This document shows positions 475-4,049 of a stretch of 4,049 nucleotides of DNA, in pieces (the stretch's first letter is position 1; every line of letters begins with the position of its first letter). Origin of the DNA: a plasmid; the NCBI RefSeq assembly GCF_054482525.1, contig NZ_JBTHVG010000005.1; one strand, written 5' to 3'. The translations under genes were made by a program, and so were the position numbers. The notes beneath the pieces are model-generated. The model was not told where the DNA came from. It did no database searches and saw only the letters and a program-made list of their open reading frames with translations.

Positions 475-560
475 GGGTGTCGGGGCAAAGCCCTGACCAG
501 GGCAATTGTAATAGCGTGCATGTATGCGCGGTATAACAATTGCACATCCTGTCCTGTCAG
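475..560. other. bom/oriT-like transfer origin region (ColE1 type), nick position not determined
   Basis: Begins GGGTGTCGGGGC, which matches my recollection of the pBR322/ColE1 bom region, followed by the hairpin GCCCTG-acc-CAGGGC (~489-502) and the imperfect inverted repeat GCAATTGTAATA...TATAACAATTGC (~502-543). Lies immediately upstream of mobC. By analogy to the ColE1 nic region the nick would fall near 531/532, but this is not verified. Confidence 0.55.
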
Positions 561-733: not shown

Positions 734-928
734 ATGAACAAGCAGCAGCAAGCCGTACTCAACATGGCGGGATTCATAAAAAGTCAGAGCCTGACGCTGC
801 TCGAAAAACTGGACGCACTCAATGCCGACGAACAGGCCGCCATGTGTGAGAAACTGCACGAACTCGCAGAAGAACTCCAGAACAGCATACAGACACGCTT
901 TGAAGCGGAAAATCTTACCGGGATATAA
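734..928 (+). CDS. rop: Rop/Rom (RNA one modulator) protein, copy-number control
   Basis: 64-aa ORF MNKQQQAVLNMAGFIKSQSLTLLEKLDALNADEQAAMCEKLHELAEELQ... closely parallels ColE1/pMB1 Rop (recalled as MTKQEKTALNMARFIRSQTLTLLEKLNELDADEQADICESLH...). A GGAG Shine-Dalgarno lies about 8-13 nt upstream of the ATG (acggagaaaacgaaaagATG). Confidence 0.9.
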   Translation: MNKQQQAVLNMAGFIKSQSLTLLEKLDALNADEQAAMCEKLHELAEELQNSIQTRFEAENLTGI

Positions 929-1971: not shown

Positions 1972-3111
1972 TCACCTATCTGGAAGTAATGCCACGAGCT
2001 TACGTCTATATAGTTTTGCAAGATTCTTATTAGTCCGCCCTACTATATCAAAATCATAGAGCATCCTATCTATTTTCCTAATCTGATCATCAGTTAAAGG
2101 CGGCGTAAACTTATTTAGATAGTGCTTAGCCATCAACTTTAATTTAGATATCTTGTAATCATCATAAACTGGCATTATCTCAGAAAGAATCGCCCTCAAT
2201 TCAACCGCCTGGACATGCCCAAGCCTCGACATTTGAGCAACCTTGCCAGAGCATCTATTCCATAAATCATGGTACTCTTTCGTATGACGTTCATAAGCAC
2301 CTTGTTTTTTACATATATAAACTAAGTACCTGATATAACGTCTATTTTCTTTTGTTAACTTAGGAACACCATGCTTTACCCACAACCCAGTGACACTAAG
2401 TTTAGAAGACGAATCTTTTGAGTGCTCTATCGTTGTCTTACTTTCATTTATTGAAAGTCTGTACTGATTCACCATTCCGTGAACGAGTTTTATTACTTTT
2501 GTTTTTTCCTCTGATGAAAGATCCTTATCAGAGGATATAGTAATATCATCTAAAAGCCTTGAATATGAAAGCCCCATAGACTTCAATCTATTATAGAGAT
2601 TATACTCACTATTAAAAAATAAAAGATTTGCAATATAACTAGAACAGCACCCACCCTGAGGGACCTTATTATTCAACGTCACAAGTTCCGTTAAGCATAA
2701 AGAAACATCAGGAGAAAAACGCATTAAATTTTTAAAAATAGAACAAACATCTTTTTTACTAATGCTGGGATAAAAATTGGTGATATCAAGACATATAACT
2801 GTTCTTTTCCTAGTATGAACAGCGGCATTAGATATATAATCGCGACCACTTAACGCCCCATGCAAATAATGAGGGTAATCAATTTTCTCAAAAATCTCTT
2901 TATTTATTTTTTTTTGAATTCCTTTCAAAGATCTCTTGGGTTCAAAAATTTGCCTTTCTTTTTTATTCTTCCCTGTTTCAACCTTAAACTGCTTGTACGA
3001 CATCGATACAGACTTGACTATCCAGTCCAATCTTTTTCTTTCTATGCCTAACATCGCAGATAAAGAATCCAAAGATGCAACAGGAGTTCCATTAAACCTG
3101 GGTTTATTCAT
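1972..3111 (-). CDS. Retron-type reverse transcriptase
   Basis: 379-aa ORF with RT motifs in order: NAxxH-like SNAAVH (res 95-99), motif A CLDITNFYPSI (catalytic D109), motif B VPQGGCCSSYIANLLF, motif C YSRLLDDITIS (D188, D189) and VTG (res 240-242). It aligns motif by motif with retron Ec86 RT as I recall it (IDLEDFFPSL / LPQGAPSSPKLANL / YTRYADDLTLS / RKVTGLVI). The ATG lies 7 nt after the a2 repeat. Confidence 0.9.
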   Translation of the reverse strand: MNKPRFNGTPVASLDSLSAMLGIERKRLDWIVKSVSMSYKQFKVETGKNKKERQIFEPKRSLKGIQKKINKEIFEKIDYPHYLHGALSGRDYISNAAVHTRKRTVICLDITNFYPSISKKDVCSIFKNLMRFSPDVSLCLTELVTLNNKVPQGGCCSSYIANLLFFNSEYNLYNRLKSMGLSYSRLLDDITISSDKDLSSEEKTKVIKLVHGMVNQYRLSINESKTTIEHSKDSSSKLSVTGLWVKHGVPKLTKENRRYIRYLVYICKKQGAYERHTKEYHDLWNRCSGKVAQMSRLGHVQAVELRAILSEIMPVYDDYKISKLKLMAKHYLNKFTPPLTDDQIRKIDRMLYDFDIVGRTNKNLAKLYRRKLVALLPDR

Positions 3112-3118
3112 GATGTTT

Positions 3119-3401
3119 GAGTTAAAAGTCGATTAGTTAAAAAGTTTCGATACGTAATCTATTACTTTAAACATAATCAAGCACATAGAAAACAAAAACT
3201 GTGTTTTTTTCAGTGCCTCCAGAGAGCCAACCTCTCTTTTTTTCTTCATCTGACCGTCTCCAGAACAAGATGAAGAGCTCTTGGTTACGTTAATGTTGAT
3301 GTTGATAATAAACATGATGCAACTCCTATTGGTTATGAAATTTTGCCAGACCAGTAGGAAAGCAAGGAAAAACTCTATTGGCTCTTTGGGACTTTTAACT
3401 C
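3119..3401 (-). ncRNA. Candidate retron msr/msd non-coding RNA bounded by a1/a2 inverted repeats
   Basis: Perfect 12-bp inverted repeat: plus-strand gagttaaaagtc at 3119-3130 and gacttttaactc at 3390-3401. On the minus strand this gives 5'-GAGTTAAAAGTC (a1) ... about 260 nt ... GACTTTTAACTC (a2), then 7 nt, then the RT ATG. Internal hairpins include CTTCATCT-n16-AGATGAAG, AGAGAG-gttgg-CTCTCT and AAAAAC-aca-GTTTTT. Exact msr/msd boundaries and the priming G are not determined. Confidence 0.6.
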
Positions 3402-3684
3402 ACATTGCCAGACAATCGTCGCTATTCTTTTAGTGCTGATACACGCTCAGGGGCGTTCTCACCATTAATTAGCGGCCAGGCCGGTCATGATCTCATGCGA
3501 GATCGCCTTAAAAACAAGGCATCGGTTTCCTTGCGCAACATACACGTAACCATTTGTTAAAGAGCGAGAGCCAGGCGTGGTTCGCCCGCTTCGCTGATTA
3601 TTATAAAGTTTTTTATCTTTCTGTCACCAACAAGAAAGCGCCTTATCCTGCCAGCGATAGGCTAAAAGGTATGCAGCATGAGAT

Positions 3685-3921
3685 TCAAATCAACTCAGCT
3701 ACAAAGGCCATAACAACAATCCCAACCTCAGCATCGGCACTCAGGATAATTTTTGAACTAGCATCTCTTAAATTCTGACCGTCAAAGGTTGCTACTTTTT
3801 TTAAAGAGGCATCCCTTAAAACCTTGCCATCAAAAGTCGCTATTTTTCTCGAAAAGGCATCTCTTAAGGTTTTACCGTCAAACCGAGCAACGGTTTTTAA
3901 GTCATTGTTTTTATTGAAATA
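3685..3921 (-). pseudogene. Open frame encoding 16-aa tandem protein repeats with a hydrophobic C-terminus; no canonical start codon, so a possible decayed gene or non-canonical initiation
   Basis: Minus-strand frame from the TAA at 3922-3924 to the TGA at 3685-3687 translates to YFNKNNDLKTVARFDGKTLRDAFSRKIATFDGKVLRDASLKKVATFDGQNLRDASSKIILSADAEVGIVVMAFVAELI*. Differences between repeat copies are largely synonymous third-position changes (GCT/GCG/GCA, GAC/GAT, GGT/GGC, AGA/AGG, AAA/AAG). No ATG, GTG or TTG precedes the repeats; the nearest ATG (3903-3905) is offset by 1 nt and gives M-T-stop. Confidence 0.3.
3761..3904. repeat. Three tandem, diverged 48-bp direct repeats
   Basis: Units at 3761-3808, 3809-3856 and 3857-3904 each begin GCATC(T/C)CTTAA and share an (A/G)CC(G/A)TCAAA block and a T-run; identity is roughly 65-75%. 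Confidence 0.85.
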
Positions 3922-3955
3922 TTAATTTCTCACCAATAGTAATTTAACCAATTGT

Positions 3956-3985
3956 ATTTACCATAATCCCTTAATTGTACGCACC
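3956..3985 (-). other. cer: cer-type XerC/XerD site-specific recombination core (plasmid multimer resolution site; accessory arm extends toward and past the window end)
   Basis: Minus strand reads GGTGCGTACAA-TTAAGGGA-TTATGGTAAAT, matching the ColE1 cer core (XerC arm, 8-bp central region, XerD arm) as I recall it. Accessory sequences would lie on the XerC side at 3986-4049 and beyond. Confidence 0.8.
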
Positions 3986-4049
3986 GCTGAAACGCGCTGA
4001 ACGCGATTCTGACGCAGACACCGCAAAAAGAGATGTTTTACCCCGGGAA

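Follow-up and report, generated by a model that had tools for sequence, protein, structure and literature searches.

Which conjugative system could mobilise a small ColE1-type plasmid whose putative origin of transfer lies upstream of rop, beside the gene for a relaxosome accessory protein? The question is raised by the 4,049-base stretch of DNA analysed here (the window), in which a first-pass annotation had read positions 475-560 as a parallel to the bom region of ColE1 and pBR322, placed out of its usual position next to a mobC gene and diverged around the predicted nick, which could mean a different relaxase specificity. The strings quoted for that parallel are indeed present at 475-560.

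Gene order and cargo of the plasmid

The window is an essentially complete small circular plasmid. Sixteen PLSDB records match it at ~98% identity over at least 80% of its length, and these are mostly plasmids of 4.0-4.15 kb from E. coli, Salmonella or Shigella. The accessory gene, which we call nikA (minus strand, 127-450 or 127-474 depending on the start codon), belongs to the ribbon-helix-helix (RHH) type and is divergent from rop (plus strand, 734-928), an ORF that carries a Rop-family annotation in near-identical plasmids. The segment under study lies between the two genes, confirming the gene order first described. The ColE1-type origin region (963-1725; 84% identical to ColE1 604-1395), with RNAI inside it (1583-1683; Rfam RNAI, 94.6 bits), is found beyond rop. 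The transfer origin (475-557) is thus upstream of rop and on the far side of it from the replication origin, as had been noted, and the rop stop codon is separated from the origin homology by 35-60 nt only. The statement that bom lies between rop and the origin in ColE1 and pBR322 also holds: in ColE1 (NC_001371), rop occupies 1803-1612 and is followed by GGGTGTCGGGGC at 1521-1510, by CTGGCTTA at 1469-1462 and then by the origin. A simple scan of 400-1000 detected no sigma-70 consensus promoter for nikA or rop.

The cargo is a retron of the Se72 family, which sits between the replication origin and a cer-like multimer resolution site. Its reverse transcriptase (RT; minus strand, 1972-3111, 379 aa) has its best NCBIfam matches among retron RT families, all below the curated cut-offs, and its cold-shock-domain effector (minus strand, 1764-2021) matches the retron Se72 effector family at 84 bits, against a cut-off of 82. 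Within the upstream retron region that we considered (3133-3640), the part from 3400 to 3640 recurs with 88% conservation in plasmids of 4,261 bp from Klebsiella and Serratia, which likewise have an RT and a cold-shock-domain gene, and because of this conservation it may hold the msr/msd RNA. An Rfam scan of the window returned RNAI only and no retron ncRNA family. Further on, a 48-bp tandem repeat (3761-3882; 2.5 copies, 72% matches) encodes 16-aa repeats of the form ATFDGKxLRDAxxKK. The ORF that contains it (minus strand, 3687-3953) corresponds to an 88-aa hypothetical protein in near-identical plasmids and is disrupted in the window by an early TAA stop (GAA to TAA). The cer-like site itself (minus strand, 3950-4007) is 89.7% identical to ColE1 3887-3944 and contains, on the minus strand, GGTGCGTACAATTAAGGGATTATGGTAAAT, which we take to be the XerC/XerD core.

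The oriT family, the adjoining gene and the NTP16 group

To which oriT family does the segment belong? BLASTN of 440-730 against 72,556 PLSDB plasmids returned 3,067 records, which include two very different kinds of match. Small plasmids with the same nikA-oriT-rop stretch account for 376 records that cover at least 80% of the query, and ~1,575 conjugative plasmids match 475-557 only, at roughly 79-87%. We examined five of the conjugative plasmids (IncI-gamma/K1, IncI1/B/O and relatives, and one Pectobacterium plasmid), and in all five the IncI-type match lies directly upstream of nikA, followed by nikB where that gene is annotated. For direct comparisons, pESBL-305 and other I-complex plasmids served as references for the I-complex, and NTP16 for the small-plasmid group. 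With the oriT that precedes nikA-nikB in pESBL-305, 475-557 (plus strand) aligns at 74/85 positions (87%, E=5e-23). This match and the folding of the single-stranded segment (z=-5.97) set 475-560 far apart from chance, and the earlier reading of it as an origin of transfer was right. ColE1, in contrast, aligns in BLASTN with 475-498 only (22/24, E=3.6e-5).

We then aligned the two parts of the segment independently. The first 24 nt resemble the IncI and the ColE1 family to the same degree. The remaining 62 nt match the IncI oriT at 50/66 positions, a score reached by 0/2000 shuffles, whereas their match to ColE1 is gapped (38/67) and equalled by 24/2000 shuffles (~1%). CTGGCTTA is absent from the segment, and homology to ColE1 does not run through the nick (CTGG/CTTA). 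The parallel with the ColE1 bom thus stands for 475-498 and gives way in the other 62 nt, which are of R64 type; judged by these alignments, the likeness to bom is essentially confined to the left-hand hairpin. We conclude with high confidence that 475-557 is an R64/IncI-complex-type oriT, carried together with its own nikA on a plasmid that lacks a relaxase.

The adjoining gene had been called mobC, an assignment that we replace. The long form of the ORF (115 aa) starts at ATG 474, a codon that abuts the oriT and is not preceded by a Shine-Dalgarno sequence. Its product is 53% identical to the NikA of IncI plasmids over 102 aa (E=6e-38), scores 66 bits with the NikA-like Pfam family PF21983 and is matched by PDB 2BA3, the N-terminal RHH domain of R64 NikA (E=2e-5). 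The Pfam MobC family PF05713, which does match the ColE1 protein, gave no match in the window protein, and BLASTP of the window protein against ColE1 MbeC, a MobC-family protein, found no similarity. We consider the ATG at 450 (107 aa) to be the likely true start, as it is preceded 9 nt upstream by GGAG and the gene is annotated from this codon in RefSeq relatives. The window NikA is also matched by NCBIfam NF041264 at 112.7 bits, and because NCBIfam calls this NikA-like protein 'MobA', misleading 'mobA' labels have spread in RefSeq.

Does the plasmid encode a relaxase of its own? In a tblastn search of the circularised window with NikB and ColE1 MbeA the best hit had E=2.5, the ORF list shows no relaxase gene, and no nikB or mbeA remnant was found downstream of nikA. 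With nothing better than E=2.5 for NikB or MbeA, the plasmid is therefore without a relaxase. MOB-suite types some plasmids of the same group as 'relaxase MOBF', though they are without a relaxase as well.

The accessory protein is nearly invariant among small plasmids. At least 99% identity to the window NikA was found in 328 PLSDB records (100% in several) with very different cargo, and 95-99% identity in a further 53. From these values, seen on small plasmids only (at least 95%), identity drops to at most 55% on conjugative plasmids, and no conjugative NikA closer than 53-55% was found among the 72,556 PLSDB plasmids.

The window plasmid is a member of the NTP16 group (NTP16, pCERC7, pU302S, pMUT1), to which pMUT1 of E. 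coli Nissle belongs. Positions 1-874 are 94% identical to NTP16; the match stops inside rop, ~55 bp before the stop codon, and resumes elsewhere in NTP16, a pattern consistent with an insertion in NTP16. The conserved oriT block of the group extends over 108 bp of the plus strand, from 475 to ~582, and this block is identical at 107/108 positions in pMB9635_5, at 105/108 in a pMUT1-like plasmid and at 102/108 in NTP16. The NTP16 NikA differs by a one-residue deletion in the 1992 sequence. According to PMC9282650, the group was defined by Moran and Hall in 2017. One and the same NikA, with 53% identity to that of R64, is found in its members, among them pCERC7, pU302S and NTP16, and all are without NikB. 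[quoted passage not shown] In the group, it is this variable cargo that adjoins the cer-like site, and cer is listed among the elements of pMUT1 (PMC10859263). The group is also known as MOBRNA type 5 (PMC6807383) and its oriT corresponds to the 'pEC34A-type oriT' of oriTDB; an 'R64-like' oriT family has been recognised (PMC10123127), and pCERC7 has been cited for its acquisition of the R64 oriT region (PMC11389934).

Thus, the oriT type, the 20-bp repeats, the invariant NikA and mobilisation by R64/IncI1 are already known from published work, and no new biology is implied by the oriT assignment. Its main value is one of annotation correction: the family is often labelled 'mobA/mobC, mobilizable, MOBF/MOBP' by automatic annotation, yet its members have only an oriT and an accessory protein. 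The oriT type also tells which large plasmids can spread the small one, together with a cargo that is an anti-phage retron here and consists of resistance genes in relatives.

Anatomy of the oriT and predicted mobilisation

As single-stranded DNA, the 475-560 segment folds into two hairpins. The first is repeat B (plus strand, 479-497), in which GTCGGGGC (479-486) and GCCCTGAC (490-497) enclose an AAA loop within the 24-nt module 475-498; it forms in the single-stranded fold and is invariant in 10/10 R64-type oriTs. The second is repeat A (plus strand, 502-543), an imperfect 20-nt inverted repeat with arms at 502-521 and 524-543 that are 85% complementary. In an alignment of 10 R64-type oriTs the arms of repeat A co-vary, 5/15 pairs being changed on both sides. 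Overall, 95.7% of the repeat A cells in this alignment are paired, compared with 30-50% when the register is slid, and 0/500 shuffles reach the observed pairing. A compensatory pair is seen even within the small-plasmid group, where GCAATTG...CAATTGC of the window corresponds to GTAATTG...CAATTAC of the pMUT1-like plasmid. The right arm (524-543), proximal to the nick, is the presumed binding site of NikA.

The nick region, ACATCCTG|TCC (plus strand, 544-554), directly follows the right arm, which ends at 543. This 11-mer, ACATCCTGTCC, is invariant in the alignment of 10 oriTs and identical in 11/11 related loci, highly diverged oriTs included. For R64, the nick is reported (Furuya and Komano 1991/1997) to follow the G of ATCCTG, at a distance of 8 nt from the repeat. 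In the window, CATCCTGT conforms to the nick consensus of the MOBP family, (C/T)ATCCTG(C/T) (PMC3772185), with the R64/MOBP-type CATCCTG|T at 545-552. From this consensus and the R64 position, we predict the nick between G551 and T552 on the plus strand, 8 nt 3' of the repeat. The nick that had been placed by analogy with ColE1 (CGCGG/TATAAC, ~530) has to be moved: the ColE1-equivalent position falls inside the right arm of repeat A, which is the arm bound by NikA in R64, and the predicted nick is ~22 nt further downstream. The accompanying suggestion, that the nick context implies a relaxase specificity unlike that of ColE1 MbeA, was right.

Could the segment nevertheless be a displaced, nick-diverged ColE1/pMB1 bom, cut at ~529|530 by MbeA/MobA (MOB-HEN/MOBP5) from a co-resident ColE1-like plasmid? 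The ColE1 bom agrees with its first 24 nt at 22/24 positions, the alignment of the remainder is weakly better than chance (38/67; 24/2000 shuffles), and its polarity relative to the replicon is as in ColE1. We give this possibility next to no credence, on several grounds: (i) the nick-proximal 60 nt are of R64 type (50/66, 0/2000 shuffles) and include the invariant ATCCTG box, which is absent from ColE1; (ii) the ColE1-equivalent nick would lie within an inverted-repeat arm; (iii) the product of the adjoining gene resembles NikA, lacks a MobC domain and shows no similarity to MbeC in BLASTP; (iv) true ColE1-type boms with an intact CTGGCTTA exist apart and are even found side by side with R64-type oriTs in two small plasmids (one of 1,551 bp), so that the ColE1 and R64 types are two distinct oriT types; and (v) IncX helpers, which mobilise mobC-mobA plasmids, failed with pU302S, a plasmid that is mobilised by IncI1 (PMC8623487).

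The left module is the part that the two types share. As GGGTGTCGGGGCnnAGCCCTGACC (window 475-498; ColE1 1498-1521), this hairpin module is nearly unchanged in R64-type and ColE1-type oriTs, and three oriT types (R64, ColE1 and CloDF13) have different nick-proximal halves and one distal hairpin in common. In CloDF13, positions 9752-9777, GGGTGGTCGGGCGTGAGCCTGAC, resemble the 24-nt module, a likeness that may reflect common ancestry or shared function. The CloDF13 nic was mapped within GGGTG/GTCGGG, as quoted in PMC5935869, so that the relaxase of CloDF13 nicks in this counterpart of the module (GGGTG/GTCGGGCGTGAGCCTGAC). Besides being a termination hairpin, the left module, GGGTGTCGGGGC-AAA-GCCCTGACC (475-498), could be an independent, widely shared recognition element, and the oriT a composite in which a further nick or recognition site lies latent at ~479|480, for use by CloDF13-type (MOBC) or other systems. 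We regard this as quite improbable; if true, a latent second site in the left module would widen the helper range.

Nick-like motifs also occur elsewhere in the window, which contains three matches to YATCCTGY against 0.32 expected. The nick-core 10-mer CATCCTGTCC occurs a second time, without mismatch, on the minus strand at 936-945, with its YATCCTGY match at 938-945. It lies within a 6-bp hairpin (GCATCC/GGATGC; 930-946) just after the rop stop codon, in the place that bom has in ColE1, and is conserved in two relatives. No repeat-A-like inverted repeat was found beside the 938-945 motif; it is probably a relic or a palindrome of the terminator-like kind, and may also be due to chance. The octamer TATCCTGC at 3644-3651, identical to the RP4 nick octamer, was considered as an extra oriT and judged a chance occurrence: its surroundings are found only in ~30 retron-cargo plasmids, one record of which is typed conjugative, and the DNA around it showed no similarity to conjugative plasmids.

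How would the R64/IncI-complex-type oriT at 475-557 be used? The plasmid's own NikA, an RHH protein, would bind the nick-proximal right arm (524-543) and recruit the NikB relaxase, which a plasmid of the I-complex (IncI1, B/O, K, Z) in the same cell would provide in trans. NikB would then cut the plus strand 8 nt from the repeat, at ATCCTG|T (551|552), and stay on the 5' end. The cut strand would be exported 5' to 3' through the type IV secretion system of the helper, rop entering first, followed by the replication origin, the retron cargo and cer, with nikA last. When the nick region returned, the strand would be re-joined, the hairpins of repeats A and B acting in termination. On this proposal, the plasmid would depend on the NikB relaxase of an IncI-complex helper.

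We infer that the window plasmid itself is mobilised by an I-complex helper from what is known of its relatives. NTP16 is mobilised by R64 (PMC9282650) and, as noted above, pU302S by IncI1 and not by IncX plasmids (PMC8623487); F transfers pU302S weakly (PMC9282650). Of these two mobilised relatives, NTP16 is the one whose oriT was compared directly with that of the window (102/108).

Is IncI1 the cognate helper? Given a NikA identity of 53-55% and an oriT identity of ~87%, the best helper may not be a classical IncI1 plasmid. The mechanism could then be the same with another, possibly unsampled, conjugative lineage as the cognate helper, bearing a better-matched NikB-like relaxase, and mobilisation by IncI1 would be cross-talk, an idea raised by the authors of PMC9282650. 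The gap in NikA identity, which passes from at least 95% on small plasmids only straight to at most 55% on conjugative ones, points in this direction, as do the 20-nt (not 17-nt) repeat arms and the different spacer. We still hold it to be unlikely, because IncI has nearly the same sequence in the nick box and in the NikA-proximal half of the right arm (CGGTAT-ACAATTGC), because R64/IncI1 does mobilise NTP16 and pU302S, and because the 72,556 PLSDB plasmids include no closer conjugative NikA.

Alternatively, the segment could be a relic that serves here only as a nikA operator or promoter or as a structural hairpin, and no longer as a transfer origin. The relaxase gene is absent from the plasmid, and deletion of nikA improved the stability of pMUT1, so that the module is dispensable for maintenance (PMC10859263). 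This alternative appears very improbable to us in view of the perfect conservation of the 11-nt nick box across highly diverged oriTs, of the compensatory arm substitutions, found also within small plasmids (GC..GC in the window, GT..AC in the pMUT1-like plasmid), of a NikA that keeps at least 99% identity in 328 records whose cargo differs widely, and of the experimental mobilisation of relatives.

Placement among Col plasmids and comparison with known systems

Is the position of the oriT beside nikA, and not between rop and the origin, an anomaly? It had been presented as a departure from the norm, but the same arrangement is fixed in NTP16, pCERC7, pU302S and pMUT1. Elsewhere among small Col plasmids, the placement varies. 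A 2,495-bp plasmid carries an R64-type oriT (575-651) downstream of rop, in the classical bom position, and is without nikA. The 1,551-bp plasmid, also without nikA, carries an R64-type oriT (797-892, plus strand) and an inverted ColE1-type oriT (~1048, minus strand). In pEC156, orphan R64-like and F-like oriTs are both functional (PMC4743918). Given this variation among small Col plasmids and pEC156, the modules are therefore shuffled freely on these replicons. The site beside nikA is the ancestral layout of the module, as in R64, and reflects an oriT-nikA module acquired from an I-complex transfer region. It is ColE1 that departs from this layout, with rop between its mob operon and its bom.

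How does the window compare with known systems? With the oriT of R64 and the I-complex it shares the 8-bp hairpin of repeat B, a long imperfect repeat A and then ACATCCTG|TCC, with the predicted nick 8 nt on, and in both the oriT abuts the start of nikA. It differs in having 20-nt instead of 17-nt arms, a different central spacer and 2 nt fewer between repeats B and A; its NikA is 53% identical only, and nikB is absent, the relaxase being needed in trans.

The likeness to the bom of ColE1/pMB1 covers the 24-nt left module GGGTGTCGGGGCnnAGCCCTGACC (22/24), the replicon type and the polarity relative to rop and the origin. The nick-proximal module and the nick sequence differ (CTGG/CTTA in ColE1, cut by MbeA), and ColE1, unlike the window, has an MbeC with a Pfam MobC domain, a bom between rop and the origin, and a relaxase in cis.

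Orphan R64-like oriTs (pEC156, pKPN2, the pSe-Kan type and pBuzz-like 'pOriT') resemble that of the window in their R64-type nick region and in the need for a relaxase in trans. In contrast to the window, plasmids of this kind are without nikA, and their oriT may sit in the bom position or beside a ColE1- or F-type oriT.

Closest of all is the NTP16 group, which has the NikA, the oriT, the nikA-oriT-rop-ori order, the cer-like site and the lack of a relaxase in common with the window. Only the cargo beside cer differs, a retron in the window plasmid and resistance or toxin-antitoxin genes in its relatives.
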